Virus record (IMG/VR): IMGVR_UViG_3300049020_000042
Location: 1-53,968 of that record
Length of the DNA: 53,968 bases
Strand: one strand, 5' to 3'
Source of the DNA: a virus
Taxonomy: Duplodnaviria > Caudoviricetes
Below are positions 186 to 49,057 of this stretch, piece after piece (position 1 is the first letter of the stretch; each line of letters opens with the position of its first letter). Under the pieces are notes generated by a model that worked only from the letters and a program-made list of their open reading frames with translations, was not told the DNA's origin and made no database searches. Position numbers and translations under genes: made by a program.

Positions 186-563
186 ATGACAGAGCATTCA
201 ACTATTTTCGTTACCTTCCAGAAAGAAGGTATTCATCGTTATCCAGCAGCAGCGACAGATCCCAAGCTCGCGACTGGTGACGAATATGATGTGAGTTTCC
301 TCGCCCACCCACATCGCCATATGTTTCACTTCCGAGTTACCATGGAAGTTTTCCATGATGATCGTGACGTTGAATTCATTCAATTCAAGAGATGGTTGGA
401 AAAGTTGTACAGTGACAAAACGTTGGTTCTGGATTACAAGAGCTGTGAAATGATGGCTAGAGAATTGTCCACCACGATTTTCGCGAAGTACCCCGACAGA
501 AGTCTGTCTATTGAAGTATCTGAGGATGGAGAAAATGGCGCAACACTCGCATTCACTCGCTGA
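186..563 (+). CDS. dpdL: QueD-like T-fold protein, candidate 7-carboxy-7-deazaguanine decarboxylase (DpdL type)
   Basis: LAHPHRHMF (LxxxHRHxF) in place of QueD CxxxHGH, plus SCE and VSEDGENG; AAGGAG RBS before ATG 186; folE/queE neighbourhood. Confidence 0.7.
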   Translation: MTEHSTIFVTFQKEGIHRYPAAATDPKLATGDEYDVSFLAHPHRHMFHFRVTMEVFHDDRDVEFIQFKRWLEKLYSDKTLVLDYKSCEMMARELSTTIFAKYPDRSLSIEVSEDGENGATLAFTR

Positions 564-834
564 TAAAGCAGCGAGGATATTCCTGATATCTACTGGAGTA
601 GCCAGTCGTGATATCAAGCGGTATCAACGATATAAAGTTCTCAAAGACAATGCTGATCGTTTGATGCATGTTTACGATTCTGTCTCAAACAACGATCTCT
701 TCAAAGCTGAGACGCAGTTGAAGATTGTTCGCGAAGTTAATGGCATCAATGAAGAATGTATTGCTCTCAAATCGAAGTTTGGTAGATTTGCCATCGCGAT
801 GGAACTCCAGGACGAATTGGCAAACAGACCTTGA
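535..834 (+). CDS. hypothetical protein
   Basis: ORF overlapping both neighbours; start moved to ATG 535 after GGAGA. Confidence 0.55.
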   Translation: MAQHSHSLADKAARIFLISTGVASRDIKRYQRYKVLKDNADRLMHVYDSVSNNDLFKAETQLKIVREVNGINEECIALKSKFGRFAIAMELQDELANRP

Positions 835-1262
835 TTCGTTCTTCAGGTGAAAGTAAAATTGGCACTCTAAACAAGGAGTGCCAATTGTTTTTCCAACAGA
901 TTATCGTCAGAGTCAAGCAGTTCTTCTCTGAAGTCGACCGTAGGAAGACTGCATCAGCTCTTAGAAAGATTGCTGAATACGAAAAACAGAATTCTGCAAG
1001 ATTGCAGTCACTGGCTGCAATCAAGGATGATTACAACTTTACATATTACAACGTTCAGATGGCGTTCGTGAAAATGATTTCGACTCAAATTCAACGATAC
1101 GAGATACATCGTCAATGCTCACCAGGAGCATTTGCTGAGGAAATGATTCAGCAAATGAGTTCTGATCTTGAGCAACACGAAAAGGATGCTAAATCGACAT
1201 TTGATAAGCTCAGCCCGCAATATCAAGAACGAGTAATCTTAGAAAAGTTGTCCGAAGATTAA
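831..1262 (+). CDS. hypothetical helical protein
   Basis: 143-aa ORF coupled to upstream stop; start uncertain (TTG). Confidence 0.55.
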   Translation: MIRSSGESKIGTLNKECQLFFQQIIVRVKQFFSEVDRRKTASALRKIAEYEKQNSARLQSLAAIKDDYNFTYYNVQMAFVKMISTQIQRYEIHRQCSPGAFAEEMIQQMSSDLEQHEKDAKSTFDKLSPQYQERVILEKLSED

Positions 1263-1264
1263 TA

Positions 1265-1293
1265 TTGAGCGGCGTTGATGGAAATGCCATAAT
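1265..1293 (+). promoter_or_regulatory. sigma70-type promoter (probably leaderless mRNA)
   Basis: TTGAGC-17-CATAAT with TGn extension; ATG 6 nt after the -10. Confidence 0.6.
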
Positions 1294-1299
1294 AATGGC

Positions 1300-2400
1300 A
1301 TGACTAACACCATCTACATCGTCGATCTCGAAAGCGTCCCCACCCGTTACACTTGTCAATGGAAAGCGGGACTTCCAAACTCACTGCGAGAGTTCGTAAA
1401 ATCTCTTGGTACTGGGCATCAAGTAGTCAACATCAGTGGTGGTGATGTTGAAATGATTGCCACCCCAGGTGCGTTCCTCAACTTCGCAGGGACGAACGTT
1501 TACAAAAGCAATCAAGCCATTGAAATCTCCAAACTGTTCTCCGAGGGGAAAGTTCGTGATGGTGATCGCTTCCTATTCACCGATGCATGGAACCCCGCAA
1601 TCATCATGGTAAAGTACATGGTAGAGCTTCTGGGGATCAAAGCAGAGCTTCACGGAATTTGGCATGCTGGGTCATATGATCCGCAGGATTTCCTCGGTAG
1701 ACTGGTAAAGGACAAGCGTTGGAGCTTGTCAACTGAGAATGCCATCTATCATGCTCTTGACTACAATTACTTTGCAACCAACTTTCATATCAAACTGTTC
1801 CGTGACAATGTCCTCAACACGGTGGGTTTTGGTTCCAACCACGATGAGTCCAAGAAAAAGATGGTCCTCAGCGGCCAGCCACATGAGCATTTGATGTCGC
1901 ATTTGACACCATTCCGTGGTATGAAAAAGCGTGATTTGATCTTGTTCCCTCATAGAGTTGCGCCCGAGAAGCAGCCTGAAATCTTCCGTGATCTGGCCAC
2001 TTACCTGCCAGAATACGAATTCGTGGTTTGCCAAGATAAGCAGCTAACCAAGGATGAATATCACACACTTCTGGGTGAGTGCAAGATGGTGTTCAGCGCT
2101 AACTTGCAAGAGACTCTTGGTATCTCTGCCATGGAAGGCATTTACCTAGATGCCCTTGCTCTAGTTCCAGATCGTTTGTCATACTCTGAAATGTATGGCG
2201 ATCACTGCAAATATCCGTCCTTCTGGACTGAAGATTTCAATACCTACCAATTCCATCGTGATGAACTCGTGGCTCTAATCCGTGAAAAGATGACCAACTA
2301 CGAACGTGACATCAACCTGGTCTGGGAACAGAATGTCAAACTGGTAAGAGATTATCTTACTGGTGAAGTCATGTACAAAAACCTTACGACAGTGAGATAA
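1300..2400 (+). CDS. GT-B (GT4-like) glycosyltransferase
   Basis: FPHRVAPEKQPE and QETLGISAMEG (ExxGxxxxE) donor-binding motifs, VPDRLSYSEM; 366 aa. Confidence 0.85.
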   Translation: MTNTIYIVDLESVPTRYTCQWKAGLPNSLREFVKSLGTGHQVVNISGGDVEMIATPGAFLNFAGTNVYKSNQAIEISKLFSEGKVRDGDRFLFTDAWNPAIIMVKYMVELLGIKAELHGIWHAGSYDPQDFLGRLVKDKRWSLSTENAIYHALDYNYFATNFHIKLFRDNVLNTVGFGSNHDESKKKMVLSGQPHEHLMSHLTPFRGMKKRDLILFPHRVAPEKQPEIFRDLATYLPEYEFVVCQDKQLTKDEYHTLLGECKMVFSANLQETLGISAMEGIYLDALALVPDRLSYSEMYGDHCKYPSFWTEDFNTYQFHRDELVALIREKMTNYERDINLVWEQNVKLVRDYLTGEVMYKNLTTVR

Positions 2401-2402
2401 GC

Positions 2403-2885
2403 ATGCATCGGAACAATTTCATAGGTACCTTTAGCTCCGTCATGGGGAAACTCAAGGGTTGGGATGAATCATTCATTGATTCTTATCTTTACAAGATTAG
2501 CGAGATCAAGATCAATCCCAAGCAACAAACTGAGGTCACTCTGACGTTCACCGAAGATTTCGAATCGAAGGTTTTGGAGAGGCTTTTTGATTTGTCCAAT
2601 GAGATGACCGCCAACAGTGAGATTCATTTCAAGTTGGCATTTAGGGCGAAGAACGGGAAAAAGATTGTCCGTCAAATAATTATACCAGTTGAGGATATTG
2701 ATGTCACTCTAAATGAATTTGATTACAATTGTCGTGACAACCGGAATAGCCAGATTGTAGTCAAACTCAAATACTCGGAAACAAAAGTTGAAGTATTCAA
2801 AGTCGAGGAAGCCAATGAAGATGGTGATGTTTATGCAGACGAAGATGACTTTGATTATGAAGATGATGACGATTCTGATTATTGA
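2403..2885 (+). CDS. divergent tail-tube-fold protein with acidic tail
   Basis: VTLTFTEDFESKVLERL, VTLNEFDY and IVVKLKY align by eye to the tail tube at 32049-32642. Confidence 0.5.
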   Translation: MHRNNFIGTFSSVMGKLKGWDESFIDSYLYKISEIKINPKQQTEVTLTFTEDFESKVLERLFDLSNEMTANSEIHFKLAFRAKNGKKIVRQIIIPVEDIDVTLNEFDYNCRDNRNSQIVVKLKYSETKVEVFKVEEANEDGDVYADEDDFDYEDDDDSDY

Positions 2886-2900
2886 GATACGGTTGAAATT

Positions 2901-3302
2901 ATGATTCCACAACCATTCATTGTTTCGAATTTTAGAGTGCGATTCATGTCGATGATTGGTGTGCTCACAGATGATTTCAAAACGATGTCATCGCAAGTTA
3001 CTGGAGTGGATCAATTTGATCTGGCCGTTGAACAGGGTGGCGATTTGATGGTCAACATCAGACAAGATGACAAGGGTGTTGTTTTTCGTGAACTGACTAG
3101 ATTCATGGCTTCTGCAAAGGGAGATTCTGATTGTTGCATCATCATCGAACAACTTGATACAAAAAGTGATGACATTCGAGTGAAACTGAAATTCAGTAAT
3201 TTGAATTGCAAACTGACGTACCAGAAATTGAGATATGCAGTCCTAGATGCTCATCAACTTAATTTGATGATTGCTTACAAATCATGGGAATTGGTAAATT
3301 AG
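2901..3302 (+). CDS. divergent tail-tube-fold protein
   Basis: NFRVRF, SSQVTG, VNIRQDD, IIIEQLDTKSDDI and LNLMIAY collinear with tube KFRVRV, SQQVMT, IELRDD, YLETLDGGNDTI and ISLEVRY. Confidence 0.6.
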   Translation: MIPQPFIVSNFRVRFMSMIGVLTDDFKTMSSQVTGVDQFDLAVEQGGDLMVNIRQDDKGVVFRELTRFMASAKGDSDCCIIIEQLDTKSDDIRVKLKFSNLNCKLTYQKLRYAVLDAHQLNLMIAYKSWELVN

Positions 3303-3314
3303 AAGATAAATAAT

Positions 3315-3436
3315 ATTGTAAGCATCACGAGGATGCTTACAATGGTGATAGTTGATTTAACTAGGGTGGCATCGCAATGATACGTCCTTCCATAACATGA
3401 GGTTATGGTAAATTTTCGCAATATGAGGTTGCAAAA
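3315..3436 (+). promoter_or_regulatory. structured folE 5' leader (three AYGAG-loop hairpins)
   Basis: Stems 3315-3343, 3390-3408 and 3413-3436 with loops ACGAG/ATGAG/ATGAG; the last holds the SD; TAAATA at 3307. Confidence 0.6.
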
Positions 3437-3437
3437 C

Positions 3438-4115
3438 ATGAGCTACAATAAGAATAAATGTGATCCAGAGTTGGGCAAAGCAGTCCAAGCACACTTGGAA
3501 AAGTTGGGTCTCCACACCCCCATGTCCACCAATACCCTGAATGCAAAGCAAAAGATCGCCAAGATCGAAAAGCACATGCAGGGTATCATGCAAACTTTGG
3601 GACTGGATCTCACTGACGACTCCTTGATTGAAACGCCTATTCGCGTTGCCAAGATGTACGTCAACGAGGTATTCTGGGGTCTTGATCCAGAAGCATTCCC
3701 CAAATGCACCGCAGTAGACAACAAGATTTCCTATGATGAAATGGTAGTTGAAGAAGACATTACTGTGATGTCAAACTGCGAACACCACTTCGTAACCATC
3801 GACGGCTTTGCCACCGTAGCCTACTTGCCCAACAAGAAGGTCTTGGGTCTGAGCAAGATGAATCGCATCGTGGAATACTTCAGCAAGCGCCCACAGATTC
3901 AAGAACGTCTAACCGTTCAGATCGCCGAAGCACTCAAGTTTATTCTTGACACTGAGCATGTGGCCGTTCTCATTAACGCATCACATTATTGCGTGAAGAG
4001 TCGTGGTGTTGAGGATACAAACTCCCACACTATTACTAGCCACCTGAGCGGCAAGTTCAGGGAAGACGCTTTGGTTCGTGGTGAATTCATGGCACTGGCC
4101 ACCAGACGCAAGTAA
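3438..4115 (+). CDS. folE: GTP cyclohydrolase I
   Basis: ETPIRVAKMY, CEHH, GLSK, RPQIQERLT and HYCVKSRG; start at ATG 3438 after GAGG. Confidence 0.97.
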   Translation: MSYNKNKCDPELGKAVQAHLEKLGLHTPMSTNTLNAKQKIAKIEKHMQGIMQTLGLDLTDDSLIETPIRVAKMYVNEVFWGLDPEAFPKCTAVDNKISYDEMVVEEDITVMSNCEHHFVTIDGFATVAYLPNKKVLGLSKMNRIVEYFSKRPQIQERLTVQIAEALKFILDTEHVAVLINASHYCVKSRGVEDTNSHTITSHLSGKFREDALVRGEFMALATRRK

Positions 4116-4135
4116 GTAGTCATTTAAGACTCCTA

Positions 4136-4172
4136 GCCCTCAGATAAATATTCCTTTATCTGGGGGCATTTT
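4136..4172 (+). promoter_or_regulatory. hairpin containing late promoter TAAATA and sequestering the RBS; possible folE terminator
   Basis: 13-bp stem 4136-4148/4155-4167; TAAATA 4145-4150; GGGGG in 3' arm; ATG at 4174. Confidence 0.65.
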
Positions 4173-4173
4173 C

Positions 4174-4668
4174 ATGGCTGTACTACAGGGCAGGAGTCCT
4201 AAAACAACATTTGCCAATCTTCTTACTGTAGAGGGAGGATTGACCGTATCTTTGACGCCGGTAGAGAGTGGTGGGGGAAAAACAACCCCATTGAAGCTTT
4301 CAACCACTTCGATTTCAATTCACGATTTAACTTTTCCATCCACAGGCGTAGCCGCTGGTAAGGTACTGACTATCTCTGCTGATGGTCTATCCATGGAATG
4401 GAAAACACCTGCGGCAAGTTCAGGTGGCGGGGGTGGTGGAACAGTTCTGGAGACCGAAGCCGACGCGATCTATTACGAATACAACGATGATGAAGTCGTG
4501 AGTGTGATGACTGAGCATTTTGGTTCTGAGACCAGAGTAACCACCTATAGCTACAGCGTAACTGGCAAGGTGGACACTATCACAATCGAATATTTGGGTC
4601 AAACTCGAATCGAAACTTACACATACATCAACGGCAAAGTGACCTCTATGGTTGCTTCTTCTCTTTAA
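4174..4668 (+). CDS. tail-fibre-associated structural protein
   Basis: GKVLTISADG..EWK fibre-type motif, Gly linker, YD-like repeats; late promoter. Confidence 0.6.
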   Translation: MAVLQGRSPKTTFANLLTVEGGLTVSLTPVESGGGKTTPLKLSTTSISIHDLTFPSTGVAAGKVLTISADGLSMEWKTPAASSGGGGGGTVLETEADAIYYEYNDDEVVSVMTEHFGSETRVTTYSYSVTGKVDTITIEYLGQTRIETYTYINGKVTSMVASSL

Positions 4669-4680
4669 AGGTTTTCCAAA

Positions 4681-6924
4681 ATGGCATTTGATCCAATCAC
4701 ATACAACGAAGTTCTTTCAGGCAAGAATCCAGTTGGTACGCTTCTCCGAGTGGTTAGCGACTTCCAAGACCCCAAATATATCGACTCTGGTGCAAGCTTC
4801 AGCTCAGATCTCTACCCAGATCTGGCTACAAAAGTTCCTGGTGGCTTCCAGGGTGACTACGTGAAAGAAATCCCCATCGCCAGTCTGCCATCAAGTTTCA
4901 GTTCTTCATCTGCTGCCTTGGGTTCATACCTTATTGGTTTCGTGTCCGATGGTAAGATGAATTTCCTCTTCGCTAGCAGTGGTGTTATCACACGCTACAC
5001 GTCAGTATCAAGCAATATGGCTGATGGTATCGTATTCAATGGTTACTTCGTAGTTCCTGGTGGTACAGGCTCTGACACCGTGACTCCGGAAATGTCAGTC
5101 AACAACGATGGTACGTTCATGTACGCGTCGCTGGCTGATAGGCATTATCGCTTCGATTTGTCAGATCCCACACTGGCCACCTACAAGAGATTCACCCTCC
5201 CGACTTCCACCAACAGATACAAGTTTGCTGATGGTAATGGTTTAATCATGGCAGCGGCAGGCAACATCAGCGTGTCTGGGAATATCCACTATTCGTCAAA
5301 TGGCGGTGATAGCTGGACGGTTGGTGGCATCGCGACTAACACCGCTGGTAGTAGCCCACAAGGTCTGAGTTATGGCGCAGGTGTATTTGTTATGGTCACT
5401 GCCGCATCAACCAACAATATCACTAGATCAGCTGATGGTGTTACTTGGACTACCCAGACCGCTGGTTCGATTGGCCACAACGCCGTTAAATTCAATCCAG
5501 TGTTGAGTTTGTTTGTAACCACTCCATTCAATACTGGCGCAGCGTATTCATCCCCCACGGGTGTGACCTGGACTGCTAGAACGTCCATCAATGGTCAACA
5601 ACGAGTCATCAGTATTTCATCCCTGACCGGTGACATGATTTGTTCACCTACTTCAAACTCCAGTGGTGCAAACAGTGGTTTCTGGAGGAGCTCAAATGGC
5701 ACTTCATGGGCAAACAGACAAACCACTACTCCGTTCAGCACCACAACCAACAACGCCTACCGGGCTATCTACGCCGTGGACAGTTTTCCAGGGTTTGCAA
5801 TTGCGTTCACGGGTCCGGCAAACACAACTGGTTACGGTCCAATGTTGTATTCATTCAGCACGGATAGCGGGGCGACATGGAGTTCTGTCAGAAACGTACC
5901 ACCCACCAATGCAACCACCAAAGCATTCCGTCCACCAGTCATGAGTAGCTCTGGTGATAAGATTGTGTTGATGGAAACCCTCGCCAGTGGTAACGATCAA
6001 GTGTCAAATACTTGGAATGGTATTCTGTCAACTGACGGTGGTGATAATTGGCAAGCATTTGCTATTTCAGCCGGTACTGAAATGGTTTATTGGAAGGAAG
6101 TGATTCCAACGTTTGATAACAAGTTGATTGCTTGGGGTCAAGCATCCAATGATACCGCAACCGCTAGAGCAATGTGCACCGCAGTAACGAGCGATGGTGC
6201 CTCTTGGCAATATACGTCATATACCGCATTGCCTGTTGGTTTGCAGTCTATCACGCCCTCAACCGTAGCTATTGGTAACGATAATCGCTTATATTTTGGA
6301 AATAACTCCACGAGTACTGGTGCGATGTCAGCTGATTATGGTGCTACTTGGACTCAGAAAGCTCTTCCATTCACTGGTGGTAAATTGGTATCATTCAAGA
6401 GTAGGATCATGATCTTGGTGAACGGTCAGGTACCACGTTATACCGTTGACGGAGCGACTAACTGGCTTACTGGTCAATTGTCATCTCTGCCCGCCACCAC
6501 TCCTATTGGATTTGCCGCAAATGATAGAGTTGCCGTTGCCGTGATTGCCAACTCAGCTTCATTCTACTACACATATGATGGTGTGATTTGGATGCTGGGT
6601 ACTTTGCCGGCATCAATGCCCGGTTCAGTGGGTATTATCAATGATTGGATCATGTTCCCAACTGGTGCTGGTTCAATCTACAGAACCAAGGATTTCACAA
6701 ATTGGGATCTGGTGGTTATTGGTGATGACAACAAATATTCCACTATGGCTCTGAGTTCGATCTCCTCTAACCCGGCAGGTTCTGAAGGTTTCTTCCACGG
6801 AGTTGCCGCGAACAATACGGCTGGTTATCTGTTGAAGGCTGATACGGAAGTCACAGATCGTAGACGATTGCCAGTGATTGCCTCTGATCTCCCACACACC
6901 AAGTGGGTTGTATTGGCAAAATAA
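4681..6924 (+). CDS. Asp-box (BNR) beta-propeller tail fibre / receptor-binding protein
   Basis: About 11 SxDG(x)xW repeats (SSNGGDSW, SADGVTW, STDSGATW, STDGGDNW, SADYGATW); Ser/Thr/Gly-rich. Confidence 0.75.
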   Translation: MAFDPITYNEVLSGKNPVGTLLRVVSDFQDPKYIDSGASFSSDLYPDLATKVPGGFQGDYVKEIPIASLPSSFSSSSAALGSYLIGFVSDGKMNFLFASSGVITRYTSVSSNMADGIVFNGYFVVPGGTGSDTVTPEMSVNNDGTFMYASLADRHYRFDLSDPTLATYKRFTLPTSTNRYKFADGNGLIMAAAGNISVSGNIHYSSNGGDSWTVGGIATNTAGSSPQGLSYGAGVFVMVTAASTNNITRSADGVTWTTQTAGSIGHNAVKFNPVLSLFVTTPFNTGAAYSSPTGVTWTARTSINGQQRVISISSLTGDMICSPTSNSSGANSGFWRSSNGTSWANRQTTTPFSTTTNNAYRAIYAVDSFPGFAIAFTGPANTTGYGPMLYSFSTDSGATWSSVRNVPPTNATTKAFRPPVMSSSGDKIVLMETLASGNDQVSNTWNGILSTDGGDNWQAFAISAGTEMVYWKEVIPTFDNKLIAWGQASNDTATARAMCTAVTSDGASWQYTSYTALPVGLQSITPSTVAIGNDNRLYFGNNSTSTGAMSADYGATWTQKALPFTGGKLVSFKSRIMILVNGQVPRYTVDGATNWLTGQLSSLPATTPIGFAANDRVAVAVIANSASFYYTYDGVIWMLGTLPASMPGSVGIINDWIMFPTGAGSIYRTKDFTNWDLVVIGDDNKYSTMALSSISSNPAGSEGFFHGVAANNTAGYLLKADTEVTDRRRLPVIASDLPHTKWVVLAK

Positions 6925-6937
6925 TAGCCAATGAATG

Positions 6938-6968
6938 AATGATGGTCGGTTCTTCCGACCATCATTTT
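6938..6968 (+). terminator. intrinsic terminator
   Basis: 12-bp stem AATGATGGTCGG/CCGACCATCATT followed by Ts. Confidence 0.75.
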
Positions 6969-7000
6969 GAGTAAATGAAGACAGGCTTTATACTTTGGTG

Positions 7001-7363
7001 ATGGCCTTTCTCAATAAAGACGACATTCCAAAATCCAACTGGACACAAGCCAGAAAGAACGGATATTCGTTCACCAACGATAAAACCATCCTGCTCGATG
7101 GTTGGTATGCGTTAGCGTTGCGAGCTCATCTCATGCGAGAACAATCCACAGAAGGCCTGGGTGTGAATTGGTATAAGGCTCTGAACATTGCCAAATCAGA
7201 CAATGCTGGAACTGTCAAACGAAACAATCCGGAATTTCAATGGCCGAATGCGCCATGGGAGGTCGAGCCCATGAAGAGAGGTGATCCTGATCGGGTTACT
7301 TTCTTCTTAATCGAATTTGAGAACCCAGAAGATTTGATTACTTTCAGATTGAAGTATTTGTAA
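7001..7363 (+). CDS. hypothetical protein, C-terminal FExxxDxxxFKL-motif family
   Basis: Ends FLIEFENPEDLITFRLKYL; TATACT 6 nt before ATG 7001. Confidence 0.7.
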   Translation: MAFLNKDDIPKSNWTQARKNGYSFTNDKTILLDGWYALALRAHLMREQSTEGLGVNWYKALNIAKSDNAGTVKRNNPEFQWPNAPWEVEPMKRGDPDRVTFFLIEFENPEDLITFRLKYL

Positions 7364-7399
7364 ATTGGCTTTTGGTGTTGATCCAAGTAAAATACTCGG

Positions 7400-7867
7400 A
7401 TGACAATTCCAAAACTTATCTACACTCACGACAGCATGGCTCGTGATTTACATTCCATGTACCGCACAATGCACCTCGAGGGCTTTAAGCCTGATGTGGT
7501 GGTTGGTATCACTCGTGGTGGACTCATCCCCAGCGTTTACGTCAGCCATTACTTTGATGTTGATTTGGTAACAATCAACGTGAGCTTTCGAGACACGAAG
7601 GTTCTTGAGCCAACGACTGAAATCGAGGAACTGCTCAAAGCTGGCAGAACCATCTTGCTGGTTGACGACATTTGTGACAGCGGTGAAACCCTTGAATTCA
7701 TCTATAACCAGCTGCAACAAACGGTGCCTGATCGTCTTGATACACAAATGAAGACCGCGGTACTTATTCATAACGAAGGCTGCCAAACCTTCACGCCTGA
7801 GTATTCCGGTACTACAATCAATAAATCGGAACAAGACGTTTGGGTGTGCTTTCCTTGGGAACAGTAA
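7400..7867 (+). CDS. purine phosphoribosyltransferase (Gpt-like, type I PRTase)
   Basis: VGITRGGLIP, LLVDDICDSGET PRPP loop, WVCFPWE; TTGGCT-17-TAAAAT upstream. Confidence 0.9.
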   Translation: MTIPKLIYTHDSMARDLHSMYRTMHLEGFKPDVVVGITRGGLIPSVYVSHYFDVDLVTINVSFRDTKVLEPTTEIEELLKAGRTILLVDDICDSGETLEFIYNQLQQTVPDRLDTQMKTAVLIHNEGCQTFTPEYSGTTINKSEQDVWVCFPWEQ

Positions 7868-7875
7868 TCTACACA

Positions 7876-8517
7876 ATGTATCAGATACGAAACTTGATCA
7901 ATGACAAGCTCTATATCGGTTATACGAAACAAGAGCCCATCAGCTATATCAGGAATCATTTCCGAAGAGCAAGGCTTGGTGAAGATCCCAACAAGTTGCT
8001 CTTCAAAGCCATTTTGAAATATGGTGAAGATGCGTTTGAGGTGACTTTGATTGCACAAACCACTGAAAAGGCAAACGCAACGTATCTTGAGAGATTCTTT
8101 ATTGGTGATCGTAATAGCCATGCAGTGTCAGGACATGGGTACAATTTGACACTGGGTGGTGATGGCGGAGATACTAGTCAATCGCCGAACTATAAAGCTG
8201 GTATAGCTAAAAGAGATCTTCGAGGTGAAAAGAATGGCAACTGGGGTGGATTCTCTGAGGATCACAAGAAAAACCTGAGTGCCGCAAAAAGAGGAAAGAG
8301 ACCCAAGAGTTGTGATGTTTGGTCAAAAGCTGCTACTGGCAAAATTTACCTTCACGATGCAATAAAAATGATTGAGAAAAGAGTTCACCCTGATGAAGCC
8401 ACCCAATTCAAGAATAATGGCTTCGTTCTTGGGAGACTGAAGTTAGAATGTAAAATCTGTGGCAAATATGCTGACGTTTCGAACCTGAAGCGCCACCATA
8501 GACACGATGAACAATAA
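7876..8517 (+). mobile_element. free-standing GIY-YIG homing endonuclease
   Basis: YQIRNLINDKLYIGYT, GYNLTLGGDG and NUMOD3-like SEDHKKNLSAAKRGK. Confidence 0.85.
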
Positions 8518-8523
8518 GGATCA

Positions 8524-9552
8524 ATGATGGCAGAAAAACAATATCAATATTCCGAAATTTTCGGAAACACAATTCAGGGTGAAGGCCAATATACCGGTGT
8601 ACCAACCGTTTGGGTTCGCTTCTGGGGCTGTAACCTAAATTGCAACGGCTTCGGACAGACTGACCCCACCGACCCAAGCTCATGGATCTTGGATTATCAA
8701 ACGATTGATATTTCGTCCATCACCAAGATGGAAGATCTGCCAGTATTCAATCGCGGTTGTGATTCATCCTACAGCTGGTCGAAGAACTATGCTCACTTGG
8801 CCCACAAAGCCACTGCGGCCGAAATCTGCGATAAGCTGGAAGCGTTCATGAAGAACGAACACAATCCAGAAGGAAAGTTTCTCCACCCCAAGAGTAAGCA
8901 GTGGCAACACATGGCTTTTACTGGCGGTGAGCCCATGATGTCCCAAAATGCCATCGTGGACATCATGTTGGAATTCGCCAAGAGAAACAACGTCCCCAAG
9001 TATGTGACAGTTGAAACAAACGGCACCCAGAAAGCTCGTGACAAAATCAGTGACTACATCAGAGGTTACCCGGTAACTGATGATGCTCAAGTCGAATTGT
9101 TCAATCAAGATTTTGACTATGAGAAAAGCTTCTACATGGCTGGTAAGATTTGGATGAATTCAGAATCACTGATCGGTTTAACTCCTGAGCTGGAAGCTCT
9201 CAAGGGTGTTGAATGGTTCTGGTCAGTCAGTCCCAAGTTGTTCCTGAGTGGCGAAACATGGGAAGACGCAATCAAACCAGAAATCGTGGCATCATATAAA
9301 GAGCTCAGCAATGCTGGTCAACTCAAGTATGTGAGTGATGGTTCACAGCGTTCATGGGATGAAATCGAGAAAGCGACGGCATTGTTCCGTGAAGCTGGGG
9401 TGAACTGGAAAGTATGGGTGATGCCGGTCGGTGCCACTGTAGATGGTCAGAATTTGGTTGCAGCGAAGGTGACTGAAGAAGCGGTTGCTCGCGGTTATAA
9501 TGTTGCGGCAAGAGTTCACGCTTACATCTTCCAAAATATCATTGGCCGTTGA
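8524..9552 (+). CDS. queE: 7-carboxy-7-deazaguanine synthase (radical SAM)
   Basis: SEIFGNTIQGEG, RFWGCNLNC, GCDS, FTGGEP, VETNGT, SVSPKL and RVHAYIF. Confidence 0.93.
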   Translation: MMAEKQYQYSEIFGNTIQGEGQYTGVPTVWVRFWGCNLNCNGFGQTDPTDPSSWILDYQTIDISSITKMEDLPVFNRGCDSSYSWSKNYAHLAHKATAAEICDKLEAFMKNEHNPEGKFLHPKSKQWQHMAFTGGEPMMSQNAIVDIMLEFAKRNNVPKYVTVETNGTQKARDKISDYIRGYPVTDDAQVELFNQDFDYEKSFYMAGKIWMNSESLIGLTPELEALKGVEWFWSVSPKLFLSGETWEDAIKPEIVASYKELSNAGQLKYVSDGSQRSWDEIEKATALFREAGVNWKVWVMPVGATVDGQNLVAAKVTEEAVARGYNVAARVHAYIFQNIIGR

Positions 9553-11073: not shown

Positions 11074-11504
11074 CACTTCGTATTGGCATCGTGGGTTATT
11101 CCACCACTGAGTTTGATGAAGAAAGAGCAAAGTTTATCCTAGATGCCGCGATAGCGTATGTTCGGATAGAACGAGACGTTGAACAAATTGAAATTGTCTC
11201 AGGACTGACCAACATCGGTATACCAAAATTGGCATACGAATTGGCTGAAAAGTATGGATACCCTACTCGTGGTATTGCTTGTTCCAAAGCTACCGATTAT
11301 GCCTGTTTCCCATGCGATCACGTACATATCGTTGGACAAGAGTGGGGCGAAGAAAGCACGATGTTTCTAACATCGATTGATTTCCTCATACGAATTGGTG
11401 GCGGAGTTCAATCACATGCCGAGACAGTAGAAGCTATCAGACTTGGGATTCCCATCCTGGAGTTTGATTTAGATGAAGAAGATGAAGGAAACACAGATGA
11501 CTAA
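11070..11504 (+). CDS. SLOG-superfamily nucleotide-binding protein
   Basis: RIGIVGYS, IVSGLTNIG, WGEES and IRIGGG motifs. Confidence 0.65.
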   Translation: MTLRIGIVGYSTTEFDEERAKFILDAAIAYVRIERDVEQIEIVSGLTNIGIPKLAYELAEKYGYPTRGIACSKATDYACFPCDHVHIVGQEWGEESTMFLTSIDFLIRIGGGVQSHAETVEAIRLGIPILEFDLDEEDEGNTDD

Positions 11505-12114
11505 GCCATGGATACCATTTAAATTGATGCCCGCCAGTTGGGGATTGAAGGGTATGAGCCGAGAGATTGCTCAAATTGAATATGAGTGCCAGGATTCGTA
11601 TGAGAAGCAAACGCGCATTGCCAAGGTAAAGTATGCTGATGATCTACCTAAACTGAAAAGAGTTCTCCTAGACATCGAAGCCAATCATGGCAAGATTGGC
11701 GATTACGAATACGACAAAGCCAGAGTTGATTTGGAATATGAAGCCAATTCCGAAGCTTTCAAGTTGGCAATGAACGAAGTTGAATTCCATCACGACAAGA
11801 TTTCAGAGAACGACAGAGACAAGAATGCGGCCACCATCAAGGGTGAACCATACGTAAAGGTTATCAATTCGTCCTTTGATCCTGGTAAGGGTGTTGATGG
11901 TGTCTATTTTGAACTTGATTGGAATCAAGCATGGATCGACTTGCTGCGAGAGAATGGATACGTGGGCGCCGTCGATGAACTCTTGGTGGATCAATGGTTT
12001 GAAGACGTGTGTAAATCGTCAGCCAACGAAAAGTTCAATAACGAGCCAGTTCCATTCAACAGTCGACGTGCCAACAGTCGACCAGTTGATGGCAAGAGAA
12101 CCGATTATTTCTAA
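11497..12114 (+). CDS. conserved jumbo-phage hypothetical protein
   Basis: GEPYVKV...YFELDWN...VDQWF block; start at ATG 11497 after GAAGGA. Confidence 0.7.
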   Translation: MTKPWIPFKLMPASWGLKGMSREIAQIEYECQDSYEKQTRIAKVKYADDLPKLKRVLLDIEANHGKIGDYEYDKARVDLEYEANSEAFKLAMNEVEFHHDKISENDRDKNAATIKGEPYVKVINSSFDPGKGVDGVYFELDWNQAWIDLLRENGYVGAVDELLVDQWFEDVCKSSANEKFNNEPVPFNSRRANSRPVDGKRTDYF

Positions 12115-12165
12115 ATTGCTCAATGAGTACGAGCCATTGTAAAATGGCTCCTTTAGGAGAAGATT

Positions 12166-13194
12166 TTGAGCAGATACATCGTCGTTGACACTTACAACCT
12201 GTTCTTCCGTTGTCTCCACAACGGAATGATGGGTGATGCATATTCAAAGGCTGGATTGAGCCTGCATATCGTTTTGCGTTCAATCAGAAAGCTGTGGCGA
12301 GAACTCAAGGCCGATCATGTGGTATTTGTTCTTGAAGGTGGTAGTTGGAGATACGACGTATATCCCGATTACAAGAAAAGCCGCCAAGTTGCAAAAGCGC
12401 TTGCATCCCCACAAGATCAAGAAGATCAACAGGTTTTCATAGAGACTCTGGGTGAGCTGGTTACTTTCCTGACCGAGAAGAGTAACTGCACGGTACTCAA
12501 AACCAAACGGGTTGAAGGGGATGATTTCATTGCTCGGTGGGTTCAAAACCACCCAGATGATGAACATGTGATTGTCAGCGGTGATACTGACTTCATCCAA
12601 TTGCTATCCGACAAGGTCTCGATCTATGATGGCGTCAGGGAAGTAATCATCAAGCCGGATGGTGTTTTCAATTCGGACGGCCAACCAATGGATTTTGGTC
12701 TTCGTAGTAACGGCCACCTTCGAGTAGGTAATGAACTTGATTTGCTTACAAGCGATTTCAAGATTGAACCAGAGTGGTGGAGATATGCAATGTTCCTGAA
12801 GTGTATCAGAGGCGATTCCGGTGACGGCATCTTTTCCGCATACCCAAAGGTTCGTGAGAACAAAATCAAAGCCGCTTGGAACGATCGCAAGGATCAGGGC
12901 TACGATTGGAACAATCTCATGCTGCAGAGCTTTACCTTGGGTAAGGGTGAAGATGCTGTCACGAAGGAAGTCAGGAAGGAATATGACTTCAATTTGTCCC
13001 TGATTGATCTTACCAAACAACCAGAAGACATCAAGGACTTGATGGACCAAGCTATCATCGAAGCTGTCACCAAGCCCAAGGTTAGTTCAGTTGGTATCCA
13101 CTTCATGCGCTTCTGTGACCAGAATGGATTGATTAACATCGGCAAAGAAGCAGCCGATCATGCCGTATATCTCAACGCACCGTACGTAAAATAA
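12166..13194 (+). CDS. rnh: T4 RNase H-like 5'-3' exonuclease
   Basis: VVDTYNLFFR, YPDYKKSR, EGDD, SGDTDFIQL and RGDSGDGI; AGGAGA RBS before TTG. Confidence 0.92.
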   Translation: MSRYIVVDTYNLFFRCLHNGMMGDAYSKAGLSLHIVLRSIRKLWRELKADHVVFVLEGGSWRYDVYPDYKKSRQVAKALASPQDQEDQQVFIETLGELVTFLTEKSNCTVLKTKRVEGDDFIARWVQNHPDDEHVIVSGDTDFIQLLSDKVSIYDGVREVIIKPDGVFNSDGQPMDFGLRSNGHLRVGNELDLLTSDFKIEPEWWRYAMFLKCIRGDSGDGIFSAYPKVRENKIKAAWNDRKDQGYDWNNLMLQSFTLGKGEDAVTKEVRKEYDFNLSLIDLTKQPEDIKDLMDQAIIEAVTKPKVSSVGIHFMRFCDQNGLINIGKEAADHAVYLNAPYVK

Positions 13195-48556: not shown

Positions 48557-49057
48557 ATGAACCAACCAATCAACTACAAATTTGTATCCACGAAAGAATA
48601 CGTGGATGCCTATCCTGTCGCCTATCGCCAGTGGCGTGCTGACAGTCATTGCAATCTCATCCATGGATATTCCTTCTCAATGAAGTTTTATTTCGGGACC
48701 AACGACCTCGATGTTCGTAACTGGGCAGCCGACTATGGCGGCCTCAAGGAACTCAAAGGCATCCTGAACGACATGTTTGATCACCGCCTACTGGTTGCTG
48801 AGGATGATCCTGAGCTGGCCTTCTACAAGGAAATGGAAGCTCGCAAGCTGGCAAAGCTGACGATCTTGCCACGACTGGGTTGCGAGGGTCTGGCCGATAT
48901 GCTGTACCGTTATGTGAACTCGGTATACATTCCAGATATGTGGGGCCAAGCTGAAGCAGATCGTCTGTGGTGCTTCCGTGTTGAAGTAAGGGAAACCCAA
49001 GCCAACATGGCCTATCGTGAAGGCCATCGTGAATGGAATGAGGACTTGATTGGATGA
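48557..49057 (+). CDS. queD: 6-carboxy-5,6,7,8-tetrahydropterin synthase
   Basis: SHCNLIHGY, DYGGLK, FDHRLL, GCE and VEVRET. Confidence 0.9.
   Translation: MNQPINYKFVSTKEYVDAYPVAYRQWRADSHCNLIHGYSFSMKFYFGTNDLDVRNWAADYGGLKELKGILNDMFDHRLLVAEDDPELAFYKEMEARKLAKLTILPRLGCEGLADMLYRYVNSVYIPDMWGQAEADRLWCFRVEVRETQANMAYREGHREWNEDLIG

Follow-up and report, generated by a model that had tools for sequence, protein, structure and literature searches.

Does a phage pathway that makes 7-deazaguanine for insertion into DNA also include a step that adds a sugar to this base? The question is raised by a stretch of 53,968 bases (referred to here as the window), which is the entire linear IMG/VR record IMGVR_UViG_3300049020_000042 and has no end repeats. 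An initial annotation, made from the sequence alone, had listed folE, queE, and queD genes, a second T-fold protein with the motif LxxxHRHxF that resembled the predicted decarboxylase DpdL, and a GT-B glycosyltransferase (GT) three genes after it, and had proposed that the GT may sugar a deazaguanine in DNA. All of these genes were recovered at the places reported for them by Pfam, PHROG, motif, and fold comparisons. From the evidence presented below, the window was judged, with a probability of roughly 0.5, to belong to a QueC-less, DpdL-type, GT-linked 7-deazaguanine DNA modification module that would give a sugar-bearing deazaguanine. The earlier statement that no such modification had been characterized is in agreement with a full-text literature search, in which no paper on glycosylated 7-deazaguanine in DNA was found.

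Linkage of the glycosyltransferase gene to dpdL

DpdL relatives were encoded at a minimum of 595 loci in IMG/VR, and the best 80 of these at least 595 loci formed a DpdL-centered set; a GT-centered set comprised the best 80 of at least 593 IMG/VR loci with GTs of the window type (type a). In the first tblastn search, window-type GTs were present in just 28 of the 80 DpdL loci, and the seemingly GT-less loci were found to bear a GT of a second subfamily (type b), which is ~22% identical to the window GT, is matched by blastp with the window GT (E = 1e-10) and with the GT of Acidovorax phage ACP17 (E = 4e-19), and gives weak Glyco_trans_1 matches. When hidden Markov models (HMMs) of both types were used, a GT was located within 2.6 kb of dpdL in 50 of the 54 DpdL loci whose downstream sequence reached at least 3 kb (type a in 19 and type b in 31), leaving four loci without a GT (L012, L022, L032, and L040). 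DpdL was encoded in 79 of the 80 type a GT loci and in all 72 with at least 1.5 kb of upstream sequence, usually at a distance of ~250 nucleotides (nt). The co-occurrence of dpdL and GT genes, which the initial annotation had put forward as a check on its proposal, was thus borne out from both sides.

Among GenBank phage records, 28 contained a DpdL homologue and 22 a GT homologue, with both present in 18 of the 28. The GT gene adjoins dpdL in PA5oct-like phages (11 records), ACP17 (2 records), Sinorhizobium phage Phosso, and Synechococcus phage BUCT-ZZ01, the last of which has a type b GT, and it lies 1.6 to 2.8 kb from dpdL in Xanthomonas phages X1 and BUDD and Burkholderia phage BCSR5. The gene order in ACP17 is QueD, FolE, two unknown genes, GT, DpdL, and QueE. 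A prokaryote genome collection gave 11 matches with the same neighborhood, one of them on a 3.18-Mb contig of an Alphaproteobacteria metagenome-assembled genome that carries genes for a GT, a DpdA-like protein, DpdL, and QueE. The GT-linked DpdL variant is widespread and undescribed.

Putative transglycosylases of loci with and without a GT

A protein of 480 to 555 aa is encoded upstream of dpdL in 69 of the 80 DpdL loci (for example, EST35_0316 of PA5oct) and was detected by HMM in 60 of the 65 loci whose sequence extends at least 4.5 kb upstream of dpdL. Its alignment contains invariant motifs with aspartate residues. The protein had no Pfam match, and its profile had no sequence match in the PDB; an AlphaFold model of a 550-aa member (from locus L002; predicted local distance difference test score [pLDDT], 85.5; predicted template modeling score [pTM], 0.83) returned tRNA-guanine transglycosylases (TGTs) as all of its top 50 PDB fold matches (best E = 1.7e-7; probability, 1.0). 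The modeled fold identifies the long protein as a putative TGT-fold transglycosylase. Searches with PF01702 (TGT) and with DpdA3, the transglycosylase of Cellulophaga phage phiST, gave no match at E ≤ 1 in Phosso, ACP17, PA5oct, and two IMG/VR contigs of ~300 kb. These missing matches reflect divergence and not the absence of a transglycosylase.

No queC, queF, or TGT/dpdA-like gene was found in the window, as the initial annotation had reported; a single subthreshold QueF match falls inside folE. The window is a fragment with a completeness of 12% (CheckV) in which just 164 nt precede dpdL at the 5' end, so the absence of a gene from it says little about the phage. Because dpdL is this close to the contig end and the long TGT-fold gene is just upstream of dpdL in relatives, the absence of dpdA is probably a truncation artifact, and the gene would lie off the contig. 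The search for DpdA/TGT and QueC that had been advised was made in relatives, where it recovered the TGT-fold gene at this upstream position and no QueC in three complete genomes. In Phosso, the long TGT-fold gene is ~170 kb from the cluster and therefore need not adjoin dpdL.

A shorter, DpdA3-like protein (285 to 291 aa) is encoded directly after dpdL in Vibrio phage D479 (E = 3.5e-11), Aeromonas phage Ahp1 (E = 1.1e-4), and locus L012 (E = 2.3e-5). Genes of this kind were present in all four GT-less IMG/VR loci and in none of the 76 other DpdL loci, the 80 GT loci, or the 11 genome loci. No GT was detected within 8 kb of dpdL in phages RHph_I1_18, Bakedbeans, D479, Ahp1, and phiST. A Pfam scan of the proteins encoded after dpdL in GT-less phages and of a 424-aa protein of ACP17 gave no match; the ACP17 protein matches the long TGT-fold family weakly (E = 0.002 to 0.004). 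The DpdL of GT-less locus L012 is 70% identical to that of the window and is thus as close to it as the DpdLs of GT-bearing loci (66 to 78%). Because of this similarity, and because DpdA3 and the GT are mutually exclusive, the same DpdL appears, by sequence comparison, to work with either DpdA3 alone or the long TGT-fold enzyme plus a GT. Of the computational evidence, this switch of transglycosylase argues most strongly for the GT as part of the pathway and for a product other than plain 2'-deoxy-7-deazaguanosine (dDG).

Two further features of the GT-less loci were recorded. The DpdA3-type loci encode a transporter of the Vut_1/YhhQ family (PF02592, E = 2.7e-21) between QueD and FolE (L012:739-1362); this family imports queuosine precursors. 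In L012, the DpdA3-like gene is followed by genes for a deoxynucleoside monophosphate kinase and a dCTP-deaminase-like protein.

Fold and conserved residues of the GT

The AlphaFold (AF2) model of the window GT, based on an alignment of 50 homologues, had a pLDDT of 91.5 and a pTM of 0.90. Foldseek comparison of the model with the PDB gave 484 matches at E ≤ 0.001; the highest ranks were taken by GT4/GT5 enzymes, including Pyrococcus abyssi glycogen synthase (3l01, E = 7.6e-10), BshA, PglA, HepE, PimB', and MshA. The GT was confidently modeled as a GT-B fold of the GT4 type, in keeping with the GT-B prediction of the initial annotation. The closest viral model was that of the ACP17 homologue (template modeling score, 0.86). 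A sequence search of the window GT against the PDB gave no match, and Glycos_transf_1 matches were subthreshold in the GTs of ACP17 and PA5oct and in type b GTs. The window GT is 42% identical to EST35_0317, the GT of PA5oct, and 36% identical to the GT of ACP17, whose gene occupies positions 84803 to 85831 of that phage.

The window GT contains an E-x7-E motif (E271 and E279) together with R219 and K224, which are taken here to be the catalytic and nucleotide-sugar-binding hallmarks of the GT4-type class. Across 31 sequences from both subfamilies, residues E11, R16, Y17, D127, R219, E223, K224, Q225, Q270, and E279 are invariant, and E271 is conservatively replaced by D in type b. The conserved residues of the N-terminal domain suggest a common acceptor across the family. 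All 8,000 scored candidate clusters at 90% identity matched the family at E ≤ 0.001 (at least 8,000 members at this level); at 50% identity, 2,600 representatives matched at E ≤ 0.001 and 581 at E ≤ 1e-30. The atlas clusters of the family are 95 to 100% viral. Identity of the GT with the queuosine mannosyltransferase QTMAN was considered and rejected, with no QTMAN_N (PF12038) match at E ≤ 10 in seven members, including the window GT.

The initial annotation had linked the GT to deazaguanine and had suggested C-7 as a possible site of attachment. The tight co-conservation with dpdL favors the link; attachment at C-7 is the weakest part of the proposal and is doubtful because the enzyme is of the GT4 type with E-x7-E. 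Enzymes of this type are retaining and normally glycosylate O (sometimes N) atoms, and the C-glycosyltransferases known to us are GT1 type.

DpdL and the 7-deazaguanine synthesis genes

The motif in the putative DpdL of the window is L46-AHP-H50-R-H52-M-F54, an exact instance of LxxxHRHxF. This is the DpdL signature, replacing the CxxxHGH of QueD, in the available portion of Cui, Hutinet et al. (NAR 2023, PMC10516641), where the function proposed for DpdL is decarboxylation of 7-carboxy-7-deazaguanine (CDG). In an alignment of 28 DpdL sequences, L46, H50, H52, and F54 are invariant, and R51 is nearly so (F in PA5oct). The window protein is 30.6% identical to phiST DpdL (CGPG_00067) over 124 aa (blastp, E = 1.7e-13) and matches phrog_17812 (E = 1.5e-34). 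It had no direct match to the Pfam PTPS family and nothing meaningful in a sequence search against the PDB. Comparison of the DpdL alignment with a phage QueD alignment (hhalign) gave a probability of 68% (E = 4.8e-5, 102 columns), and for phiST DpdL an HHpred probability of 99.9% for a relation to T-fold/QueD proteins is given in the same portion of PMC10516641. The genomic context of dpdL consists of FolE, QueD, and QueE-like genes without QueC in the window and the TGT-fold gene upstream in relatives. In Vibrio phage Bakedbeans, DpdL forms the C-terminal third of a 383-aa protein (gp176, L166:7248-8399); the N-terminal ~250 aa had no Pfam match, and this fusion partner could hint at the real substrate of DpdL.

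FolE of the window scored 316.9 bits against the NCBIfam FolE model (cutoff, 202). The radical S-adenosylmethionine (SAM) protein matched phrog_2076, "QueE-like radical SAM domain" (E = 6.2e-51), and Fer4_12 (E = 1.9e-5), and it holds the QueE position in synteny with relatives; it is called QueE-like because, despite the PHROG match and synteny, it scored only ~42 bits against the NCBIfam QueE equivalogs (cutoffs of at least 200), and over the N terminus only. QueD of the window is 51% identical to ACP17 QueD. All 14 phage QueD sequences compared, including those of the window and phiST, have C-x3-H-G-Y where CxxxHGH is quoted in the available portion of PMC10516641, and this zinc motif variant evidently still supports dDG synthesis in phiST.

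The complete genomes of Phosso, ACP17, and PA5oct lack QueC, and the pathway therefore stops at CDG or 7-deazaguanine (DG). QueC-like matches in two IMG/VR contigs were not counted as QueC; they lie outside the cluster and are weak and partial matches of the PP-loop kind. The phosphoribosyltransferase (PRTase) gene of the window, like the GIY-YIG endonuclease gene that follows it, was not in the initial annotation. The PRTase matched a purine PRTase in the PDB (1vdm, E = 6.6e-13), and its best NCBIfam match, below the cutoff, was xanthine PRTase (E = 9.7e-14). A PRTase accompanies the type a GT in 52 of 80 loci (EST35_0321 in PA5oct) and is not an obligatory partner, because it is missing from most type b GT loci.

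Two other enzymes were encoded near these genes in relatives. Adjoining QueE in a 303-kb relative (L079:14424-15521) is a second radical SAM protein, which bears a SPASM domain (PF04055, E = 1.6e-10; PF13186, E = 4.1e-8); relatives of it were detected by tblastn in 4 of the 80 DpdL loci, with only the L079 copy beside the cluster, and none in the window. A Rossmann protein of ~140 to 170 aa is encoded directly after the GT or DpdL in PA5oct (EST35_0320, L084:11794-12312) and in 11 type b GT loci. It gives a partial NAD-dependent epimerase/dehydratase match (PF01370, E = 6e-7), has no homologue in the window, and could provide a sugar-nucleotide or reductase step.

Proposed pathway and comparison with described systems

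In the proposed pathway, FolE, QueD, and QueE would convert GTP to CDG by way of dihydroneopterin triphosphate (H2NTP) and carboxytetrahydropterin (CPH4), as is established for these families. DpdL, by homology to its phiST counterpart, would then convert CDG to DG, and the long TGT-fold enzyme, placed here by its fold and by the position of its gene upstream of dpdL in relatives, would exchange the base into DNA. The GT4-type enzyme would move a sugar from a nucleotide sugar to the deazaguanine, either as the free base before insertion or in DNA afterward, to give virion DNA with sugar-bearing 7-deazaguanine; its fold, conserved catalytic motif, and gene linkage point to this role. The PRTase would most likely return guanine freed by the exchange reaction to GMP and on to GTP, the substrate of the pathway; alternatively, it may activate the deazapurine itself to a nucleotide. 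The modification would protect phage DNA from restriction.

The closest described system is that of phiST, in which dDG replaces all G (302,000 dDG per million nucleotides), according to the available portion of PMC10516641. It shares FolE, QueD, QueE, the DpdL motif, and the lack of QueC with the window, and a transglycosylase gene lies beside dpdL in the relatives of the window as well. It differs in having no GT, no PRTase, and a short DpdA3 (259 aa), whereas the protein of 480 to 555 aa in the GT-linked loci has no detectable sequence similarity to DpdA3.

Partial accounts are available for two carriers of the GT. PA5oct DNA resists five G-containing restriction enzymes, from which a modified G of unknown structure, in a GA and/or GG context, was inferred by the authors, who also named QueE and a PTPS homologue (PMC12191111, available portion); a deazaguanine synthesis/incorporation system in this phage was noted by Iyer et al. 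(PMC7824862, available portion). Expression of ACP17 dpdL with its dpdA in Escherichia coli gave no dDG, and other enzymes may be required (PMC10516641, available portion). PA5oct (Wroclawvirus) and ACP17 have the same module as that proposed for the window, with the long TGT-like protein, the GT, DpdL (57% and 59% identical to that of the window, respectively), and QueE, and with the PRTase in PA5oct. They differ from the window in being cultured phages with complete genomes and compact operons, and they offer systems in which the prediction could be tested, not an established precedent.

The alpha- and beta-glucosyltransferases of phage T4 are GT-B enzymes that transfer glucose to the hydroxyl of 5-hydroxymethylcytosine (hmC) in DNA after replication. 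The window GT may work like them, with the same fold and a sugar placed on a modified DNA base, but their acceptor is a pyrimidine hydroxyl, and they share no sequence family with the window. A GT4-type enzyme sugars a 7-deazaguanine derivative in tRNA, where QTMAN/GTDC1 makes mannosyl-queuosine and QTGAL makes galactosyl-queuosine; there, however, the sugar is placed on the cyclopentenediol of queuosine, which a QueC-less pathway cannot make. HuiG, of huimycin biosynthesis, is described in the available portion of a preprint (bioRxiv 10.64898/2026.04.15.718813) as a glycosyltransferase that uses UDP-N-acetylglucosamine (GlcNAc) and adds GlcNAc to a free 7-deazapurine base made by FolE/QueD/QueE-type enzymes. 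It differs in that its acceptor is a free base and its setting is the secondary metabolism of actinomycetes, where that account includes no enzyme for insertion into DNA, and its comparison with the window GT is by GT-B fold only. Because HuiG glycosylates a free base, glycosylation in the phages may, by analogy, precede insertion, and the switch of transglycosylase type would fit the insertion of a bulkier, preglycosylated base. Glycosylation after insertion, as in T4, is equally possible.

Evidence against the proposed modification and alternative explanations

Several observations weigh against a sugar-bearing deazaguanine as the product. It is, for the GT-bearing phages, a prediction from genes alone, and the counts that favor it are not independent, as some contigs occur in both locus sets and each set is biased to close relatives. 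There is no hydroxyl on 7-deazaguanine, and GT4 enzymes usually glycosylate O or N atoms; the linkage may be through N or O, or the DpdL product may be something other than DG. The window GT had no Pfam match even at E ≤ 10, and Glycos_transf_1 (PF00534) was matched at E ≤ 0.01 by just 6 of 50 family members (best E = 1.9e-5). The T4 alpha- and beta-glucosyltransferases were absent among the matches listed in fold searches of the PDB (ranks up to 49) and BFVD (top 50). The genes of the window are scattered, being interrupted by lineage-specific ORFs, a 747-aa BNR-repeat protein, and a homing endonuclease, with queD 39 kb away.

The GT-dpdL link is also not universal across the wider GT family. 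Distant relatives of the GT (27% identity across 73% of the query length) are encoded without a DpdL match in five phages, namely Xanthomonas phages PhiXhv-12, PhiXhv-15, and PhiXhv-16 and phages Ep026 and Ep032. In PhiXhv-12, the one of these five phages whose neighborhood was inspected, the GT gene is beside genes for GlmS and a PIG-L-type (GlcNAc-malate-deacetylase-like) protein (region L187:6750-9984) and 114 kb from FolE/QueE homologues. The pairing of GlmS and a deacetylase with this GT follows a BshA/BshB-style logic, in which GlcNAc transfer is followed by deacetylation, and the sugar in the PhiXhv lineage may be glucosamine.

One alternative is that the DNA contains plain dDG, as in phiST, and that the GT sugars a soluble molecule that never enters DNA. 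The acceptor could be a free deazapurine, giving an N-glycoside of the huimycin/dapiramicin type, or a pterin intermediate, as for the cyanobacterial tetrahydrobiopterin (BH4) glucosyltransferase, and the glycoside could serve in detoxification, in storage, or as a bioactive small molecule. HuiG acts on just such a free base, and FolE and PTPS-type enzymes also feed pterin pathways. The BH4 glucosyltransferases 9v0l and 5zer are among the PDB fold matches of the GT, but at ranks 20 and 48 among generic GT4 matches, so they are not specific. The acidity of the GT family (median isoelectric point [pI], 5.6) would suit a soluble acceptor, but the long DpdA-like protein is equally acidic (median pI, 5.6), so pI is uninformative; for the same reason it was dropped as a hint of DNA binding. 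A soluble by-product is judged unlikely, as it would be hard to reconcile with a GT that always accompanies a DNA transglycosylase-like gene and switches with it.

A second alternative is that the acceptor of the GT has no connection with deazaguanine and is instead a different modified DNA base, a protein of the phage or of its host, or the host envelope, in which case the adjacency of the GT gene to dpdL would reflect shared early-gene organization. The great diversity of GT4 acceptors, the unknown ORFs that separate the window GT from its neighbors, and the distant PhiXhv-type relatives, which occur with amino-sugar enzymes far from deazaguanine genes, are consistent with this explanation, although PhiXhv-12 still encodes FolE and a QueE homologue. 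Against it stand the co-occurrence counts (72 of 72 and 50 of 54 loci) over very different phages and a chromosome-sized alphaproteobacterial contig, the position of the GT inside the compact ACP17 operon, and its absence exactly where DpdA3 replaces the long transglycosylase. The resistance of PA5oct DNA, moreover, maps to G-containing sites (PMC12191111, available portion). An unrelated acceptor is therefore considered improbable.

It is least likely that the GT-fold protein transfers no sugar to the base and is instead a structural partner of the transglycosylase or a ribosyl- or nucleotide-stage enzyme acting with the PRTase in a prereplicative route, by which DG would be made into a nucleotide and incorporated by polymerase: the PRTase is found with the type a GT as counted above, 7-deaza-dGTP is a good polymerase substrate, and heterologous DpdL plus DpdA gave no dDG, but the PRTase is missing from most type b GT loci, and the invariance of the nucleotide-sugar-binding and E-x7-E residues in both subfamilies (with E271 as D in type b) argues for ordinary glycosyl transfer.

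Gene layout of the window

The source of the window is a large T4-like myovirus (a jumbo phage), of which the window is only a fragment; it was so assigned because a T4-type tail sheath stabilizer (gp15) and a tail sheath are encoded. No near-identical relative of its DNA was found among 50,697 GenBank phage records, and a scan for tRNAs found none. The features of the predicted modification cluster are listed in Table 1.

Table 1. Predicted 7-deazaguanine modification genes and intervening ORFs in the window
Feature	Position	Strand	Remarks
Putative DpdL-type T-fold protein (QueD paralogue, proposed CDG decarboxylase)	186..563	+	Alternative ATG at 165
Two small ORFs between dpdL and the GT gene (511-834, 831-1262)	511..1262	+	No Pfam match
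GT-B (GT4-like) glycosyltransferase, subfamily a, 366 aa	1300..2400	+	Third ORF after dpdL; fold as modeled
Two ORFs (2403-2885, with an acidic tail, and 2901-3302)	2403..3302	+	No Pfam/PHROG match
GTP cyclohydrolase I (FolE)	3405..4115	+	PF01227, E = 3.6e-61; NCBIfam NF006824
6-Oxopurine-type PRTase	7400..7867	+	PF00156, E = 2e-17
GIY-YIG homing endonuclease between the PRTase and QueE	7840..8517	+	PF01541, E = 9.4e-7
Putative QueE-like radical SAM enzyme (CDG synthase), long divergent form	8524..9552	+	phrog_2076
QueD (6-carboxytetrahydropterin synthase)	48557..49057	+	PF01242, E = 7.5e-12, above the cutoff; 39 kb from the rest

Several of the intervening ORFs appear to be specific to this lineage. 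At E = 1e-5 or 1e-4, the 160 related loci contained no homologue of either small ORF after dpdL, and the two ORFs after the GT gene had none in related loci. Between folE and the PRTase gene (positions 4174 to 6924) are a 164-aa ORF and a gene for a 747-aa protein with weak BNR/sortilin-type repeat matches (PF15902, E = 2.7e-8; PF13088, E = 9e-6). Neither had a homologue in the 160 related loci; the two look like a lineage-specific insertion, possibly structural or adhesin in nature. The GIY-YIG ORF overlaps the 3' end of the PRTase gene by 28 nt and lies directly before QueE. With just 2 of the 80 DpdL loci containing it, this ORF has probably entered the modification cluster recently as a mobile insert and stands outside the pathway. 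Beyond QueE, at positions 11473 to 13194, a gene for a protein homologous to a "virion structural protein" PHROG (phrog_13349, E = 1.4e-33) precedes one for an RNase H/FEN-type exonuclease (phrog_107). The same pair comes after QueE in 47 of the 80 GT loci and in PA5oct and Phosso.

Implications for phage DNA modification

For the phages as a group, which are large and mostly uncultured, the complete scheme is tentative and rated slightly short of even: guanine in virion DNA would be replaced by sugar-bearing 7-deazaguanine through a GT4 enzyme and a long transglycosylase in place of DpdA3, with a PRTase loop returning guanine to GTP. All of the sugar-bearing DNA bases known to us (glucosyl- and arabinosyl-hmC and base J) are pyrimidines, and the phage 7-deazaguanines known to us bear only small groups. 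If the scheme is correct, the product would be the first glycosylated purine in DNA and a new class of DNA hypermodification. Should the free base be the form that is glycosylated, the insertion of a preglycosylated base into DNA by the long transglycosylase would be the first enzyme activity of this kind to be known. It would also explain why the reconstitution of the ACP17 system from dpdL and dpdA alone by Cui et al. failed. The prediction is directly testable in the cultured carriers PA5oct, ACP17, Phosso, and BUCT-ZZ01. A modification of this kind would bear on the evasion of restriction and CRISPR systems by these phages, on modification-dependent defense nucleases such as the END nucleases, which already target PA5oct, and on the sequencing of environmental phage DNA.

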